From a candidate division WOR-3 bacterium (GTDB taxonomy: Bacteria > Hydrothermota > Tepidihabitantia > Tepidihabitantales > Tepidihabitantaceae), in NCBI GenBank assembly GCA_965649225.1, contig CBFGJX010000008.1, positions 21,512 to 85,511 on the forward strand: a DNA stretch of 64,000 bases, read 5' to 3'. The translations under genes and the position numbers were made by a program. Of this stretch, positions 5,567-48,044 are shown one piece after another; the first letter of the stretch is position 1, and each line of letters opens with the position of its first letter. The notes under the pieces were generated by a model that saw nothing but the letters and a program-made list of their open reading frames with translations, made no database searches and was not told the DNA's origin.

Positions 5567-7126
5567 GTGATCTGGATTTTTCTGGCGGCGATGACGGTGA
5601 GTTCGCGGGTGGACTCGGCAATTGTGTATCCCAATCAGGTGGTGGTGGTGCGGCGGGCCGAGCTCAACATTGCCGGGGCAACCGAAGTGGTACTGCCCGG
5701 TCTGCCCGGGGCGCTGGACGACAACACGGTCCGGATTGCTGCCAGCGGGCTGCGGATTGGCGAGGTTCAGGTGCGGCGCGGTTATCAGGCTGAACCGACG
5801 CCTGAGGTGCGACGACTGGAACTACGGGTGCAGCTGCTGGAAGACTCGCTGGCGGGACTGGACAACGAAGCGACGGTGCTGAAGGCAAGAGAAGACTTTC
5901 TGACTTCGGTCAAGCTGGGGACACCGGAGATTATTGCCCGGGAACTGCAGCAGGGCCGGGTGGCACCGGAAGCGTGGCGGTCGGCACTGGTTTTCGTCGC
6001 CGACGAACTGACGCGGGTGAAGGCACGGGCGGTGAAGCTGGCGCGGGAACGCGGTGAACTCGACCGCCGGCTGACGGCGGCGCGGCAGGAGTATGCCGAT
6101 GCCCGGGCCGCAATCGAAAACCGCAAGGAAGTACGCTTCGACTGCACCGGCACGGGCAGTTTTACCCTGCGGCTGTCGTATGCGATTGCCGGTGCGGCGA
6201 GCTGGGCGCCCTACTATGAATTGCGCGCGCGACCCGGCGACAACCGGGTGACAGTCGGCTACTTCGCCCGGCTTGGTCAGCGCACCGGCGAAGACTGGGA
6301 ACGAGTGAAGCTGGTGCTCTCGACGATGCAGCCCAGCGGCGGCAATGTTCCTCCCGAGCCGCAGCCCTGGTATGTTGCGGCGGAAGAGCCAGCGCGGCCG
6401 CGCCGGGCGTTTTCGGCCAAGGCCACGGCCGAATCAGGAGTGATGATGGCGCCGGGGTATGACGGGGTTGCCGAAGCGGAACCGGAGCTGGCGGTTGTTG
6501 AAACCGGCATTGCGCTGCAGTATTCGATTCCGGGTCGCGTGAGCCTGAAGAGCGGTGAGCCGGCAAAGAAGCTCGCCCTCGATGAATCAGGACTGCCGGC
6601 CGATTTTGAGTATCTGGCGGTGCCACGCCAGCGCCCGGCCGCTTTTCTCACTGGTCGGCTGGTCAATTCCGGCAACATGGTATATCTGGCCGGACAGGGC
6701 AACACCTATGTCGGCGATGAGTTTACCGGCAGTGCCTGGTTACCGGCAGTGGCACCGGGCGAGACCGTGCCGGTGGCCTTCGGCGTCGATGAACGAATCC
6801 GGGTGAAACGGGAACTGGTGCGGACGTTCAGGTCACGGGCGGGTCTGTTCAGCAAAACCGAAAGAACCAAGTTTGTCTATCGGACAACGGTGGAGAATTA
6901 TCAGCCCGGCACCGTGCGGCTGCGGCTGGTGGAGAATGTGCCGGTATCACAGGACGAACGGGTAAAGGTAAGTGTCGACCGGGTTGAGCCGCGGCCGGAC
7001 GAAGAAGACCGTGACCGGGGACTGCTGACGTGGCGGCCTGAACTCGGAACGCAGAACCGGTTCAATGTCGAGATTGAGTTTACGGTTGAACATCCGGCCG
7101 GCCAGCCGGTCAACGGGCTGTTCTAG
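5567..7126 (+). CDS. DUF4140/DUF4139 protein (mucoidy-inhibitor MuiA-like family), secreted
   Basis: N-terminal signal-like segment. An N-terminal β domain, a central coiled coil, and a C-terminal DUF4139-like domain (…VRLRLVENVPVSQDERVKVSV…FNVEIEFTVEHP). Confidence 0.65.
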   Translation: MIWIFLAAMTVSSRVDSAIVYPNQVVVVRRAELNIAGATEVVLPGLPGALDDNTVRIAASGLRIGEVQVRRGYQAEPTPEVRRLELRVQLLEDSLAGLDNEATVLKAREDFLTSVKLGTPEIIARELQQGRVAPEAWRSALVFVADELTRVKARAVKLARERGELDRRLTAARQEYADARAAIENRKEVRFDCTGTGSFTLRLSYAIAGAASWAPYYELRARPGDNRVTVGYFARLGQRTGEDWERVKLVLSTMQPSGGNVPPEPQPWYVAAEEPARPRRAFSAKATAESGVMMAPGYDGVAEAEPELAVVETGIALQYSIPGRVSLKSGEPAKKLALDESGLPADFEYLAVPRQRPAAFLTGRLVNSGNMVYLAGQGNTYVGDEFTGSAWLPAVAPGETVPVAFGVDERIRVKRELVRTFRSRAGLFSKTERTKFVYRTTVENYQPGTVRLRLVENVPVSQDERVKVSVDRVEPRPDEEDRDRGLLTWRPELGTQNRFNVEIEFTVEHPAGQPVNGLF

Positions 7127-19501: not shown

Positions 19502-22500
19502 ATGCGTCTCGTGCGGCTCCTGCCACTGGCTGCGGCTGTCGCGCTCGGCGGCTGGTTGAACGAGGAACGCATCACCGCGCGCACCAACGCCGCCGACCGC
19601 ACCTCGCCTAACAACGCCCGCTGCCTCGCGGTCGATTCGGCCGGCAACGTCCACGCGGTGTGGTATGGCGAGGTCGGCGGAACACGCCAGATATGGTACT
19701 CACGGCGCGAGGCGGCGACAGGCGAATGGAGCGCAGACACCGCGGTCACTGCCGGCGTGAGGGATGCCGTCTTCCCTTCGGTCTCGGCCGACCCGGCCGG
19801 GAACGTTCACGTCATCTGGCAGGCGAATACGACCATCCCGGCCATCTGCTACAGGATGCGTGCGGTTGCAAGCGGGTGGGGCGCGGTCGAGACGGTCTGG
19901 CGCGGGTCGGGCGCGGCCAGCCCGAGCATCGCCAGTCCGGGCATGAGCGTGGCGCAGGCCGTTTGGATCGCCACTTTCCCGGCGCAGCACCAGAATGTCC
20001 TGTTCGCAGTCCGGGACAGCGCGGGCTGGCGGTCGCCGAGCGTGTTGAGCGAGGACAACGGGAGCGCGCACAGCAACCCGTGCATCGCCGCGGCATCGGA
20101 TACTCACGCAGCAGTCGTGTGGAATCGCGCGCCCACTCCACGCCTGGTGTGTGCCCGGTTGCTCGTGGACCATCAGCCTCAGACGCTGGAAACTCTCAGT
20201 GTCGGCGGGGGGCTGGCAAGCATCAGTGCCGGGCGCGGCGGCGTCTACAGGGCGGTCTGGAGCAAGTCCGGCGGGACAGCAGACTCTCTGCGCATCCGGA
20301 CATGGGCCGGGGGCGGCTGGCAGGCTGTTGCGCGCGTCGAGTGCGCCGGCCGGCAGGCCGGGCCGGCGTCCGTTGCCGACGACGCCGCAGGCCGGCCGAA
20401 CCTGTCGTGGTGCGCGCCCGGGCTGACATCGGTCGCCCAGGTCCATCACGCCGTTGCCGACTCCGCAGGTACGCAGTGGCATGACGCGCAGAGACTCACC
20501 GAGGCGTCAATCGGCCGGGAGAACCCGTCGATCGCGTGCGGGCCGGACGGCAGCATTCAGGTCATCTGGACCGACCAGCGGCACAGCAGCAGCAACACCG
20601 ATGTCTACTTCCGCCGGTGGGAGTTCGTGCGGGATGTGGCAGTGTTGGGATTTGAGGCGCTGGAGGACACCGTGGACTCGGGCGACGTTGTCGTGCCGAG
20701 GGTGAGCGTGGTGAACCTGGGCGATACGGTCGAACGGAACGTCCTGCTGTGGTTTCACGGGCCGGGCGTGAGCGCGGACACGGTGCTGGATACGATTGCC
20801 CGTGGTGACACGGTCGTTGTCCGGTTCGATTCGCTGGCCGGCCGCGTGCGCGGGTGGAACGTTGTTGTCTGTTCGACCCGCATCGAGGGGGACCGCCGGC
20901 GCGGCAACGATGCGGCGCGCGACAGCTTCTTCGTCGCGGTGCGGGATGCGGCGGTGGATTCGATTGTCGCACCGCGCGGGCAGGTGGTCGAGGATTCGGT
21001 CGCGCCGGAGGTGCTGCTCGCCAACCGCGGCAATCTGGCGGCGCGCTGCACCTGCATCGTGAGCATCGCGCGCGATTCCGCAGTTGTCTACGAGGCGGAT
21101 ACGGTGCTGGGTATCGCGCCGGGGTCGAGTGCGCGGATTGTGCTGCCGTACTGGCGAACCGCGCCGGGCGAATACGCGCTGCGCGCATCGGTACGGCTGG
21201 CCGGCGATATGGTGCGGGCCAATGACACGCTCTCGGCGCGGTTTTCGGTGCCGCGGCGCGATGTCGGAGTTGCCGGAATCATCGCGCCGGTCGGACAATT
21301 TGACTCGGGCGCGGCGGTCGAGCCGCAGGTCGTGGTGTTCAACGCCGGTGCGGCAGAAGAGTCTTTCGCCGCGCGACTGTGGATCGGGCAGGGCTGGCTC
21401 GACTCGGCGCGGGTCGAACGGCTTGGACCGGGCGAGAGCCTCGCGGTGCGATTTCGCGAGTGGCGGGCACTCGAACGCGGCGAGAGCGAGGTGCGCTGCT
21501 CGCTCGCGGTGCGGCCCGACCACGAGCCGGGCAACGACACCGCGGCCGGGGCGGTGTTCGTGCGGGTGATTGACGCGGCCGCGCGGTCAATCGAGCTGCC
21601 GCCCGAGGAGGTCGGGTTCGGGACGCTGTCGCCGCTGGTGAGGGTGCAGAACTCCAGCACGCAGGCAGAGTCGGTGCAGTGCCGGTTCGAGATCCGGGCC
21701 GGGGATTCGCTGGTCTGGGCCGATTCGGTCGCGGCCGGGCTGCCGGCCGGGGTTGACAGTACGGTTGAGTTCGGCGCGTGGGAGACGCGCGGCGGCTGGT
21801 ATCGCGCGGTCCTGCGGGTGAGCGCGGGTGGAGACATGCGGCCGGAGAATGATTCAGTCACGGTAGTGTTTCGCGTGCACCCGATTGATGCCGCGGCGCG
21901 CGCGATTGTTGCCCCGCGCGGGGTGATTCGCGCGGGCCTGGTCGCGCCGGCAGTGCGCATTGCCAATCTCGGGGACGAGACCGAGGACATCCGGCTTCGG
22001 CTCGGCATCGGTGCGGGCGGCGGCACGGGCTACGACGAGTCGACGCTGGTGACGGTCGAGCCGGGCCGGGAGACGACCGCAATGCTGCCGGCGTGGCGCG
22101 CGACGTGCGGCGAGTATTCGGTTTTCGCGCGCGTGGCCCTGCGCGGTGACATCAACCCGGGCAATGACCAGTTGGCGGGAAACGTCGTCGTGGAGTCGAC
22201 CGTGGTGTTGCGCTGGACCCGGCTGGCCGACATTCCGGCCGGGCCGCGCGGATTGCCGGTGCTGGACGGCGGCGCGCTGGCCGGGGCCGGCGGCAGGGTC
22301 TATGCACTCAAGGGCGGGTCGAGCGAGCTGTGGGCTTACTCACCACCAGAGAGCGTGTGGACCGCGCAGGCCGCGCTGGGCGAGAGCTGCCGGACCGGTG
22401 GCGGTGCCGCGCTGGCCTGGGACGGCGAGCGCTGGCTGTACGCGATTCGCAGCCGGCAGAGCGGTGAGCTGTGGCGGCTTGACCTTGCGGCCGATTCGTG

Positions 22501-27993: not shown

Positions 27994-28066
27994 GCCGGCG
28001 TAGCTCAGTCGGCAGAGCAGCGGTTTCGTAAACCGCAGGTCATCGGTTCGAATCCGATCGCCGGCT
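27994..28066 (+). tRNA. tRNA-Thr (anticodon CGU)
   Basis: GCCGGCGTAGCTCAGTCGGCAGAGCAGCGGTTTCGTAAACCGCAGGTCATCGGTTCGAATCCGATCGCCGGCT folds as a cloverleaf with the anticodon loop TTCGTAA. The ORF track translates straight through it. Confidence 0.85.
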
Positions 28067-45189: not shown

Positions 45190-46566
45190 ATGCTGGAAAA
45201 TCGCATCCGTGAAATGCTGTGCGATGCGCGCGACCGCTGCCGCAAAGCCGGGATGCAGGTTGAGTTTCTGTTTCACCGCGAACGGTCTTCACTGATCCGG
45301 CTGGGAAATTCTGCCGTGGCGCTTGCGACCGCCGAGCAGCTGACCCGGCTCGATGTCGCCGTGACCGACGGCCGGCGGACCGGTTCCTATTCGCTGACCG
45401 CGGACCTGGCGTCGCGGGCGATACTGGACGACGCGATCGAACGGGCCCGGGCGGCGGCAGCGGCAGCACTGCCGAAGGATTACGATCCGATTTTCTGCAC
45501 GGTGCAGGAGCCGGTTGATGACAGCCGGGGGTTTGACCCGGCGCTGGAGGCACTCTCGCCCGAAGCCAAGACCGCACTCTGCGCCGAGGTAATCCGGGAA
45601 CTGGGGCCGCGCGGCCATTATGACTTCTCCGGTTCGTGGTCAACCGGTTCGACCGAGATTTACCTTGTCAGTACCGCCAACGACAACGAGGCCTACCGCC
45701 GGCTCACCGACGGCCGGCTGGTGATTGTGCTGAAAGAGCAGAACCGGAAATGGGAGCTGTCGGTCGAGCGTACCCAGAAGGCCGCGGGCGGTTTTTCGGC
45801 CGCCGATATCATCGCCGAGTTTGCCGCGCTGCTGCCGCTGTATGAGCGGAATGCCGGCTACAAGACGCCGACCGGCCGGCAGCGGGTGGTTTTTGCCGGA
45901 CAGGCGGTGGCGGAACTGGTGGCGCTGGCGGTCTGGGGCGGGTTCATCGGCCGGATGTGGGAAGAGAAGCGTGCTTATACCGCCGGACTGAAGCCGGGGG
46001 AGCGGCTGTTTGCCGAATCAATCACGCTGGTGGATGACCCGGAGAATCCGGACTGCTTCGGAATGCCGTTTGACTTCAACGGCATGCGGCGGCGGCGTTT
46101 CACCATGGTCGAAAACGGAGTTTTCCGTTCGGTGATGTATGACAGCAACACCGCGGCTAAATACGGCCGGAAGCCGACCGGTCACGACGGCCCGAACGAC
46201 CTGGCGCTTTTGCCCGGCAACGGACCGGCCGGTATCGAAGCCGGGCTCAAACTTGCCGGTGATGCGCTGTTCATTCCCCATCTGCACTACATTCATCTGC
46301 CTGACCCGACCCGGGGGCTTTTTACCGGTTCGTCACGGTTCAACGCGCTGCGGGTCGAGGGCGGCCGCCTGACCGCGCCGCTTTTTTCCACCCGGGTGAC
46401 CGATGAGATACCGTCGGTTTTCAACCATGTCGTTGCGGTCAGCTCGAAGTCGGTGCCGGTGAATGTCTCGGCGACCTATGACCGGCGCTCGCCCGACGCG
46501 GTCAGCGTGCCCGAGTACATCGTTTGTGATGAAGTGCGGATTAACGATGTAGCGGACAGCTTCTAG
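45190..46566 (+). CDS. pmbA: PmbA/TldE-family protein (TldD partner)
   Basis: PmbA_TldD fold without the HExxxH site. Translationally coupled 4 nt after tldD. Confidence 0.8.
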   Translation: MLENRIREMLCDARDRCRKAGMQVEFLFHRERSSLIRLGNSAVALATAEQLTRLDVAVTDGRRTGSYSLTADLASRAILDDAIERARAAAAAALPKDYDPIFCTVQEPVDDSRGFDPALEALSPEAKTALCAEVIRELGPRGHYDFSGSWSTGSTEIYLVSTANDNEAYRRLTDGRLVIVLKEQNRKWELSVERTQKAAGGFSAADIIAEFAALLPLYERNAGYKTPTGRQRVVFAGQAVAELVALAVWGGFIGRMWEEKRAYTAGLKPGERLFAESITLVDDPENPDCFGMPFDFNGMRRRRFTMVENGVFRSVMYDSNTAAKYGRKPTGHDGPNDLALLPGNGPAGIEAGLKLAGDALFIPHLHYIHLPDPTRGLFTGSSRFNALRVEGGRLTAPLFSTRVTDEIPSVFNHVVAVSSKSVPVNVSATYDRRSPDAVSVPEYIVCDEVRINDVADSF

Positions 46567-46667
46567 ACCGGGTTTTTCGCGCGGCGGGCAGGTTTTTCTG
46601 TCCGCCGCGCTGCTTGTCCTTGACTGATAAAAGTCGTCGGCTATTCTTAGCGTGTCCGACAATCTTT

Positions 46668-46751
46668 GCCGAGGTGGCGGAAATGGCAGACGCGCTAGCC
46701 TCAGGAGTTAGTGGACTCACCTCCATGGGGGTTCAAATCCCCCCCTCGGCA
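46668..46751 (+). tRNA. tRNA-Leu (anticodon CAG), type II with a long variable arm
   Basis: GCCGAGGTGGCGGAAATGGCAGACGCGCTAGCCTCAGGAGTTAGTGGACTCACCTCCATGGGGGTTCAAATCCCCCCCTCGGCA is near-identical in architecture to the E. coli tRNA-Leu(CAG) I remember. The anticodon loop is CTCAGGA. Confidence 0.85.
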
Positions 46752-46935
46752 TAATCATAAGGTGGGGATTTGCTGCGGCGGGCCAGAAAGCCGCCGCAGT
46801 GCACCTCCCCCCCTCAGCTCAATCGTAAGGCCGGGATTTGCTGCGGCGGGCCAGAAAGCCGTCGCAGTGCACCTCCCCCCTCGGCATAGAGCTGCAGTCA
46901 GCTGCGGCGGGATGAAGCCCCGCCGCAGTACAGTT
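46752..46935. repeat. Tandem repeats that re-iterate the tRNA-Leu 3' end (TCCCCCC(C)TCGGCATA) plus a conserved 9–10-bp GC hairpin (CTGCGGCGG…CCGCCGCAG), three copies
   Basis: Units run about 46751-46815 and 46816-46888. A third degenerate hairpin lies at 46889-46933. Unit consensus: ATC[AG]TAAGGnnGGGATTTGCTGCGGCGGGCCAGAAAGCCG[CT]CGCAGTGCACCTCCCCCC(C)TC. Confidence 0.6.
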
Positions 46936-47309
46936 CTGAGCGAGCGGTTTCTTTCAGTGTTGACGCCGACAGGGACTGCCTGACCGGCACTCCCCATCAT
47001 TAGAGCCGCGCCAGCGTCTTTCGGCGACAATGACGATGGCAGAAAAGTCGGGCAGCGGCGGCCAGCTCGATGATTTTCAAGCAGTTGCTTTTCTGAGCTG
47101 GAGCAGGAAAAGGGGTTGGTTACCCCACCGTTCCCATGGGGGTGCTGGCCGGTGTGGGGCCAGGTGCTGCCGGCAGGCAGGGTGAGAGCCGGGACGGGTG
47201 AAAGTTCAAAGAGTCGAGACGGACATTGCCGGCTGGCGCCGGCGACTGTCTTCGGGGTGGCATCGGGTTATCAGTGAGCTGATGGTCAGGTGCGAGTGCG
47301 GCCGCGGTG

Positions 47310-48044
47310 TCAGTCCCGGCCGAACCAGCGGCGCAGTCGCAGTTTGATGACCAGCCAGAACGCCTGCCAGATGATCCGGCGCGACATCTTTGAGACGCCG
47401 GCCGAGCGTTCGGTGAAGACGATTGGAGTTTCGATGAACTTCAGCCCCCGGCGCACAATCGCGAAGACAATCTCAATCTGAAAGCCGTAGCCGTCAACGC
47501 GGAGCCGGTCGAGGTCGATCGATTCCAGCGCCCGGCGGGTGTAGCCCTTGAAGCCGGCGGTGAGGTCCCGCACCGGGATGCCGGTGCCGATGCGGGCATA
47601 AATCGATGCGCCGTAGGAGAGCAGCAGCCGCTTCATCGGCCAGCGAACGATCGAGATGCCGTCGCAATAGCGCGAGCCGATGACCAGGTCGTGGTCTTTG
47701 AGCAGCTCCAGCATCACCGGCAGCCGGTCGGCCGGGTGGGAGAAGTCGGCATCCATCTCAAAGAAGCGGTCGTAGTCCCGCGCCAGGCCCCACTTGAAGG
47801 CAGCGACATAGGCCGTGCCCAGTCCCTGTTTGCCGGAGCGACGCAAGAGATGAACCCGCGGATTGTTGCGGGCCAGTTCGGCGACGATGTCGGCGGTGCC
47901 GTCCGGCGAGCCGTCGTCAATCACCAGAACGTCCAGCTCGGGTGACTGAGCGAGTACGAGCGGAATGATGCGGCCGATGTTTTCGGCCTCGTTGTAGGTG
48001 GGGATGCAGACCAGCGCGCGCGGCACGGGCAATGATATTGACAT
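47310..48044 (-). CDS. GT2 polyprenol-phosphate mannosyltransferase (Dpm1/Ppm1-like dolichol-phosphate mannose synthase)
   Basis: VCIPTYNEAENIGRI…LVIDDGSPDGT…EMDADFSH are the DPM1/GT2 DXD signatures. Length 244 aa. Confidence 0.8.
   Translation of the reverse strand: MSISLPVPRALVCIPTYNEAENIGRIIPLVLAQSPELDVLVIDDGSPDGTADIVAELARNNPRVHLLRRSGKQGLGTAYVAAFKWGLARDYDRFFEMDADFSHPADRLPVMLELLKDHDLVIGSRYCDGISIVRWPMKRLLLSYGASIYARIGTGIPVRDLTAGFKGYTRRALESIDLDRLRVDGYGFQIEIVFAIVRRGLKFIETPIVFTERSAGVSKMSRRIIWQAFWLVIKLRLRRWFGRD

Follow-up and report, generated by a model that had tools for sequence, protein, structure and literature searches.

In the 64,000-nt stretch analyzed here (positions 21,512 to 85,511 of contig CBFGJX010000008.1 from a candidate division WOR-3 bacterium; hereafter the window), a class II tRNA-Leu(CAG) gene without an encoded CCA is followed on the same strand by a short array in which GC-rich hairpins alternate with partial copies of the tRNA 3' end. 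A preliminary description of the locus had reported three hairpin units of about 55 nt, each re-creating the tRNA end. The features found are listed below. R1 denotes a covariance model built from five units of the array and its relatives, and TRF stands for Tandem Repeats Finder.

46620-46647, plus strand: sigma-70-like promoter of the tRNA gene with predicted start (TTGACT, 16-nt spacer, TATTCT; consensus scan)
46668-46751, plus strand: tRNA-Leu(CAG), class II (Rfam RF00005, 53.6 bits, E 4e-10; ARAGORN)
46738-46753, plus strand: repeat copy 1, the last 14 nt of tRNA-Leu and the next two bases, TCCCCCCCTCGGCATA
46752-46819, plus strand: trailer unit 1, 68 nt (TRF, repeat search; R1, 79.1 bits)
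46752 onward, plus strand: AU-rich start of unit 1, TAATCATA
46760-46772, plus strand: anti-T-arm of unit 1, AGGTGGGGATTTG
46773-46799, plus strand: hairpin 1, CTGCGGCGG-loop-CCGCCGCAG, 9 bp, perfect
46800-46805, plus strand: junction TGCACC of unit 1
46806-46821, plus strand: degenerate pseudo-3' end of unit 1, TCCCCCCCTCAGCTCA
46820-46886, plus strand: trailer unit 2, 67 nt (TRF, repeat search; R1, 71.3 bits)
46828-46840, plus strand: degenerate anti-T-arm of unit 2, AGGCCGGGATTTG
46841-46867, plus strand: hairpin 2, CCGTCGCAG, one G.T mismatch (G.U in RNA)
46868-46873, plus strand: junction TGCACC of unit 2
46874-46888, plus strand: intact pseudo-3' end of unit 2, TCCCCCCTCGGCATA
46887-46938, plus strand: third, diverged module (R1 partial match, 26.5 bits, E 1.4e-4)
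46902-46928, plus strand: hairpin 3, 10-11 bp, enclosed by an outer helix of its own, UAGAGCUG/CAGUUCUG

The array was detected by TRF with a period of 68 at 46738-46880 (2.1 copies, 90% matches, score 237), and its two units of 68 and 67 nt, rather than about 55 nt, stand head-to-tail and are 85-90% identical to each other. The tRNA and all three hairpins of the preliminary description were recovered, but only two units re-create the tRNA end. Hairpin 3, which had been placed at 46901-46931 and indeed lies at 46902-46928, is separated from the intact pseudo-end by a 13-nt spacer unrelated to the unit spacers, and is followed by TACAGTTCTGAG without any tRNA-like end; it is likely a distal stop or stability hairpin. 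The inverted repeats had been called perfect, which is correct for the 9 bp of hairpin 1 but not for hairpin 2. Similarly, the exact 14-mer CCCCCCTCGGCATA at 46740-46753 does recur at 46875-46888, whereas the degenerate copy assigned to 46803-46816 is located at 46806-46821. Each of these tRNA-end copies spans 15-16 nt, and 52 nt separate one from the next. When the tRNA-end 16-mer was searched with up to three mismatches, only three sites were found in the 64 kb (46738-46753 and both pseudo-ends). Because the two extra matches fall within 140 nt and in a 68-nt phase, compared with about 0.96 matches expected in the whole window, they are far beyond chance, which upholds the earlier impression of tRNA-like ends.

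Each unit also has an anti-T-arm, which was absent from the preliminary description. The arm of unit 1 is the reverse complement, at 12 of 13 positions, of the tRNA segment CAAATCCCCCCCT, to which the T-loop contributes its 3' part, the T-stem its 3' strand, and the acceptor 3' strand its first three bases; none of the 500 shuffles reached this score. The basic module thus contains an AU-rich start, a G-rich anti-T-arm, a GC hairpin of 9-11 bp, GUGCACC, and a copy of the tRNA T-stem 3' and acceptor 3' strands that extends through the discriminator and UA. We also considered each unit as a decayed copy of the whole tRNA and rejected this, as the spacer resembles the tRNA 5' acceptor/D-arm no more than expected by chance (p 0.14-0.47). 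Likewise, CCATGGGGGT at 47134 was dismissed as a further tRNA-like copy (chance, p 0.10).

The public loci nearest to the window are those of candidate division WOR-3 metagenome-assembled genomes. Loci of relatives were retrieved through the PmbA neighbor of the tRNA and, from the other side, through the ABC-F neighbor found in the sister clade. The tRNA-Leu(CAG) gene is present in every WOR-3 relative examined and nearly invariant in sequence. Between the window and locus L002 (CBFGIY01), 115 of 128 aligned columns of the array are identical (83% overall). In the same comparison, identity is 53% in the adjacent pmbA-like gene at its four-fold degenerate sites (n = 216) and 64-72% in the tRNA leader (hairpin and promoter), and the DNA past the array is unalignable. 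The stems, GGGGATTTG, and GTGCACC are invariant, and the hairpin loops vary. The level of 83-90% identity in the array against 53% at four-fold sites shows that the module is under purifying selection. Conservation reaches about 90% in the parts not derived from the tRNA (spacer arm, stems, and GTGCACC); gene conversion from the tRNA could maintain the pseudo-ends but not the 52 nt that lie between them. Both promoter hexamers, TTGACT and TATTCT, are retained in L001, L002, and L026, and we infer that transcription starts at this promoter-like site.

Behind the same tRNA gene, L002 carries two units and a terminal pseudo-end, L026 carries one unit and a terminal pseudo-end, and the L020-L025 group carries at least two units (with two pseudo-ends about 125 nt apart in L020); R1 scores these modules at 88-91 bits. 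Since three other lineages of one WOR-3 clade have the module behind this tRNA, the array is not an assembly artifact, and the local slippage artifact raised in the preliminary description is not borne out. Five of the six Logan contigs of the L020-L025 group, which come from different runs, stop at the repeated CGCCGCAGTGCACCTCC, so the repeat evidently fragments short-read assemblies. In L001 the module is absent, and a different 15-bp GC hairpin and then a 23S_rRNA_IVP gene lie directly after the tRNA. The module was not found in any relative with PmbA identity of 72% or less, where the sequence after the tRNA is either unrelated or a simple hairpin that ends in a T-rich tail. According to PmbA identity, the window (78-82%) is an outgroup to L001, L002, L026, and L009 (84-93%). 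Because the window shares the module, its presence predates the split of the clade, with one loss in L001.

Copy number among these close relatives is thus 0, 1, 2, or, in the window, 2 plus an extra hairpin. In the window and L002, both of which have two-unit arrays, the internal pseudo-end is degenerate in the same manner (TCAGC), and every one of the three complete arrays (window, L002, and L026) keeps the terminal pseudo-end intact (CTCGGCATA). This shared pattern favors inheritance combined with unequal recombination over independent slippage. Furthermore, the single module of L026 already has both a pseudo-end and an anti-T-arm, so the pseudo-end is not a mere by-product of array expansion.

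Energy models predict the same fold for all five full units when a unit is taken from the base after one discriminator or pseudo-discriminator to the next. In this fold the G-rich arm pairs with the pseudo T-stem/acceptor strand, and the resulting outer helix clamps the GC hairpin. An internal loop consists of AUUUG and GUGCACC, and the pseudo-acceptor retains 5-8 unpaired nt. The minimum free energy (MFE) values are as follows, with z relative to shuffled sequences:

Window unit 1: MFE -33.2 kcal/mol, z -3.2, outer helix AGG.GGGGA/UCCCC.CCU
Window unit 2: MFE -26.5 kcal/mol, z -0.9
L002 unit 1: MFE -34.3 kcal/mol, z -4.6
L002 unit 2: MFE -37.3 kcal/mol, z -3.6
L026 unit: MFE -38.3 kcal/mol, z -3.95
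Window 46887-46938, distal composite hairpin: -31 kcal/mol, z -4.2

Base pairs were taken from the individual folds, as a one-column register shift between lineages in the MAFFT alignment misaligns the outer helix. The sole stem change, in hairpin 2, gives G.U in RNA and G.T in DNA. The pseudo-ends of L020, L026, and both L002 copies have A instead of C across from the U of the arm, which creates a U-A pair, for helices of 6-7 bp; such a change would be impossible for a real tRNA. These G.U and U-A substitutions fit an RNA helix, which is suggestive only. The predicted folds also allow pairing between the arm and the true T-arm strand of the nascent precursor, so an effect on folding of the tRNA itself is possible.

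The array follows the same construction plan as the RtT repeats of E. coli, familiar since the late 1970s but still of unsettled function. At the E. coli tyrT locus (NC_000913), TRF finds a 178-bp unit in 3.1 copies with 95% identity; the tRNA-Tyr 3' end AATCCTTCCCCCACCACCA opens each unit, and a partial copy closes the array. The annotated rttR starts 8 nt past tyrV and ends exactly on the pseudo-ACCA. The Rfam family RtT (RF00391) recognizes four E. coli copies at 133-137 bits, and its consensus has an outer helix GgGaaGG/CCuuCcC around inner hairpins and an unpaired tail ccaCCACCA; covariation supports this structure only in part. The E. coli segment GGGGAAGGAT is complementary to the same T-loop/T-stem/acceptor segment as the WOR-3 arm. 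Both arrays are tandem, on the strand of the tRNA gene, and directly 3' of it. Their units begin with the last 15-19 nt or so of the tRNA (from the T-loop end to the 3' terminus) plus the first trailer bases, and the RtT array, like the two-unit part of the WOR-3 array, is closed by a partial unit that is the pseudo-3' end alone. The predicted topology also agrees, in that the anti-T-arm and the next pseudo-end would clamp one or more inner hairpins and leave the pseudo-acceptor tail free.

The differences are considerable. The WOR-3 unit is 68 nt long with one inner hairpin, whereas the RtT unit is 178 nt long with several; the tRNAs are tRNA-Leu(CAG) without encoded CCA and tRNA-Tyr, respectively; and the hosts belong to phylum WOR-3 and the Enterobacteria. 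RtT contains the tpr open reading frame (ORF), which has no counterpart in the WOR-3 array, where reading frames are not kept between the window and L002. A 39-aa basic, arginine/proline-rich ORF with a TTG start does run through the units at 46770-46889 and recalls the protamine-like tpr ORF; a coding role was rejected because its frame is not kept in L002. A cmscan search of 45500-48000 gave no match to RF00391 at E <= 1 and listed only the tRNA and a chance P31 hit. The WOR-3 array is therefore not a member of the RtT family and has no detectable homology to it. Processing is documented for E. coli RtT only (Bosl and Kersten, 1991, as cited in PMC3318445). Published accounts present rtT as a single repeat unit from the tyrT operon that processing sets free and that may have a link to the stringent response (PMC3318445; PMC2965389).

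Taken together, we interpret the array, with moderate confidence, as an RtT-like processing/termination module in the tRNA-Leu(CAG) 3' trailer that is lineage-specific, conserved, and variable in copy number. In the proposed mechanism, a precursor transcribed from the tRNA promoter would run through the array, and each unit would fold into a hairpin clamped by the arm/pseudo-end helix with an unpaired pseudo-acceptor tail. The 3' ends of tRNAs from CCA-less genes are generated by an RNase Z-type endonuclease that cuts after the discriminator and/or by an RNase E-type cut with exonuclease trimming. The pseudo-end may re-create the cutting site of this machinery, since the copy includes the trailer start as well. 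The precursor would then yield the tRNA and one or two stable by-product RNAs of about 68 nt, in parallel to E. coli rttR. The GC hairpins, above all the distal one, could block 3' exonucleases and help to stop transcription ahead of the convergent glycosyltransferase gene; as they have no U-tracts, termination may be factor-dependent. At the DNA level, the array would have grown and shrunk by unequal recombination or slippage between units. A stack of terminators was the closest of the three explanations offered in the preliminary description, but the hairpins have no U-tracts, and such a stack leaves the conserved pseudo-ends and anti-T-arm unexplained.

Several points weigh against an RtT-like processing/termination module. 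We infer transcription through the array, its processing, and the discrete RNAs from the DNA sequence. No T-run follows any of the three hairpins and a terminator scan calls none there, so intrinsic termination is unproven. Window unit 2 folds no better than shuffles and has two mismatches in its outer helix. Covariation is minimal, as the stems are invariant across the five full units, with one one-sided change and none that is two-sided. The conserved primary sequence would suit DNA- or protein-binding just as well as a role of the RNA, and the pseudo-ends could have stayed alike through gene conversion from the tRNA without any function. The state of L001 indicates that the module is dispensable. 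Finally, the resemblance to RtT is architectural only, and it leads to a system whose own role is unsettled.

The same data bear on other explanations. In a plain tandem duplication, slippage or unequal crossing-over would have multiplied the tRNA 3' end together with a terminator hairpin, and the result would be tolerated with no role beyond that of a terminator, the pseudo-ends being passengers maintained by gene conversion. We consider this possible, if rather unlikely. It accounts well for head-to-tail units with 85-90% identity, for the variation in copy number among close relatives, for the outgroups in which a single hairpin follows the tRNA, and for the fact that L001 manages without the module. 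It does not account for the single unit of L026, which is already complete with pseudo-end and anti-T-arm, or for non-tRNA parts that are about 90% conserved against 53% at four-fold sites, beyond the reach of gene conversion from the tRNA. The contrast between intact terminal copies in the three complete arrays and degenerate internal copies in both two-unit arrays also speaks against it. Another explanation is that the array consists of remnants of integrase-mediated insertions at the tRNA 3' end (of the attL/attR type) with the interior deleted and the remnant perhaps since put to use. Here too a direct repeat of the tRNA 3' portion lies behind an intact tRNA gene, and the duplicated segment spans the T-loop/T-stem to the 3' end, the typical extent of an att identity block at a tRNA gene. 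The foreign-looking DNA (the 23S_rRNA_IVP gene) that begins directly after the tRNA in L001 shows that this site is prone to recombination. Partial tRNA copies derived from integration are common, but they bracket elements of 9-23 kb with repeats of about 44 bp (PMC9897764). In contrast to such kilobases of foreign DNA with an integrase, the WOR-3 copies bracket 52 nt of conserved, self-similar sequence. No integrase was found among the 20 ORFs scanned at 41.7-63.4 kb (17 of which have a Pfam match). The preliminary description had reported none in the 560 nt or so downstream, and this extends to the ORFs tested in the 17 kb that follow. BLASTN searches of phages and plasmids gave no match to the array, and three scans of viral contigs for an att-like setting of the tRNA end gave either no match or chance matches in coding regions. 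The earlier suggestion of stacked excision scars thus finds no support: the inserts duplicate each other, which indicates a tandem repeat instead, and a dead scar is unlikely given 83-90% conservation of the 52-nt insert. We regard an integrase origin as improbable.

In a further explanation the array acts at the DNA level, where the inverted repeat CAAATCCCCCCCT / AGGTGGGGATTTG and the GC palindromes would together form a target for protein binding or recombination. Such a site could, for example, serve tRNA-targeting integrases as a decoy or landing pad, or could be a barrier to replication or transcription. The significance of the inverted repeat around the tRNA terminus and the stems kept in primary sequence without covariation agree with such a site. 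Nevertheless, the stem substitution is a G.T mismatch in DNA but pairs as G.U in RNA, an RNA-type helix gains from the C-to-A change, and no recombinase gene is nearby. The overlap regions of tyrosine recombinases are 6-8 bp, for which the 13-nt spacing is unfit, and we hold a DNA-level site to be very improbable. A small mobile repeat that targets tRNA 3' ends, similar to miniature inverted-repeat transposable elements (MITEs) or repetitive extragenic palindromic (REP) sequences, is hardly credible. The unit is short, bears a hairpin, and is flanked by duplicated target-like sequence, and E. coli rtT partly resembles REP sequences and bacterial interspersed mosaic elements (BIMEs) (PMC2965389). 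However, the unit ends have no terminal inverted repeats, as the inverted repeats are the inner hairpin and the anti-T-arm/tRNA pair, and the tRNA-Thr gene of the window has no copy. With filters off, R1 found only the two units and hairpin 3 in the 64 kb (next match, E 0.43), and among 14 related loci it found no copy away from tRNA-Leu, which leaves the tRNA-targeting MITE proposed earlier without further copies. A metagenome pattern scan (hairpin and GTGCACC) returned only three unrelated loci without tRNAs, and a search for further arrays through the spurious ORFs that span the units gave no match. By inspection, we also rejected type III toxin-antitoxin RNA repeats, as no co-oriented gene follows the array, and integron attC or dif/Xer-like sites, as spacing and core motifs do not fit.

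Compared with other known systems, the RtT-like module in the tRNA-Leu(CAG) trailer resembles 3'ETS-LeuZ from the transcript of glyW-cysT-leuZ (ETS, external transcribed spacer), a functional trailer RNA that ends in a hairpin (PMC6191717). Both are tRNA trailers with a hairpin, whereas persistence of the RNA and a function of its own are features of 3'ETS-LeuZ, which is single-copy, has no pseudo-tRNA end, and pairs with small RNAs via Hfq. The I-shaped terminators of GC-rich bacteria and the REP/BIME stabilizer hairpins likewise mark the 3' ends of transcription units with strong GC hairpins that lack a U-run, and a hairpin of the WOR-3 lineage outside the array (46579-46610) has a similar appearance. 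Unlike the hairpins of the array, these terminators and stabilizers are not phased with copies of the 3' end of the upstream gene, and REPs are dispersed in numerous copies whereas the WOR-3 unit is confined to one locus.

RtT had looked like an enterobacterial oddity. Its plan is now found, with unrelated sequence and under purifying selection, in a deeply separate uncultured phylum, which suggests that the construction plan itself is selected. At 68 nt, the WOR-3 version offers a compact minimal model for tRNA-end mimics in trailers, be it as processing signal, exonuclease stop, or decoy. More speculatively, and in our view doubtful at present, tRNA-end mimicry in trailers may be a recurrent device that evolved independently in WOR-3 and enterobacteria to produce small stable RNAs presenting a tRNA-like acceptor tail. 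If so, factors that recognize tRNA 3' ends, such as the CCA-adding enzyme, 3' exonucleases, RNase Z/P, tRNA-targeting toxins, or uncharged-tRNA sensors, could be titrated or reported on by these RNAs, and the output of tRNA-Leu(CAG) would be coupled to a regulatory by-product. On the practical side, such arrays break short-read assemblies and can pass for att sites when genomic islands are called at tRNA genes.

In the surroundings of the array, TldD-like and PmbA-like genes lie upstream of tRNA-Leu, and one more hairpin stands between the latter gene and the tRNA promoter:

46579-46610, plus strand: hairpin 3' of the pmbA-like gene, outside the array, with the core GCGGCGGGC...GCCCGCCGC common to the unit hairpins

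R1 gives this hairpin only 12.5 bits (E 0.43). Its core has three exact matches in the 64 kb (this hairpin and hairpins 1 and 3), all no more than 350 nt apart, and a T-rich 5' flank is common to it and the unit hairpins; together they may represent a local hairpin family or have a common origin. The other tRNA of the window, tRNA-Thr at 27994-28066, has a plain small hairpin behind it and no repeat.

Downstream, the gene order is a convergent family-2 glycosyltransferase (47310-48044), an ORF of no known kind, pstSCAB-phoU, phoBR-like genes, and housekeeping genes to uvrB. The approximately 375 nt from the array to the glycosyltransferase stop (46936-47310) contain no ORF of at least 80 aa and no Rfam match at E <= 1; a terminator-like site lies on the minus strand at 47126-47112. 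In L004, a distant locus that also has the glycosyltransferase 3' of the tRNA, the same interval is only about 60 nt. In L001, L002, and L026, an ABC-F ATPase with a lysine/proline-rich low-complexity tail takes the place of the glycosyltransferase. This difference in downstream synteny between the window and L004 on one side and the sister clade on the other marks the 3' side of the tRNA as a rearrangement boundary.

Between the tRNA and the ABC-F gene of L001, positions 5577-6070 hold the hairpin and, on the minus strand, the gene for a 23S rRNA-intervening-sequence protein (four-helix bundle, PF05635, E 2e-16), as if a small piece of DNA had been inserted or exchanged at the 3' end of the tRNA. 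In a metagenome contig without tRNA (L006:1350-1413, minus strand), CTGCGGCGG-loop-CCGCCGCAGTGCACCTCCAC lies upstream of guaA; its R1 score of 31.5 bits is mostly forced by the search pattern. Past the terminal pseudo-end, L026:3150-3285 and L020:1860-2070 (both minus strand) are C-rich and G-poor, with the short motifs CAGCCTACGGC, CTGACATCTG, and CATTCTGCATTCTG. This block resembles a Rho-utilization-type tract or a second repeat family, and in L020 it is apparently duplicated together with the pseudo-end.

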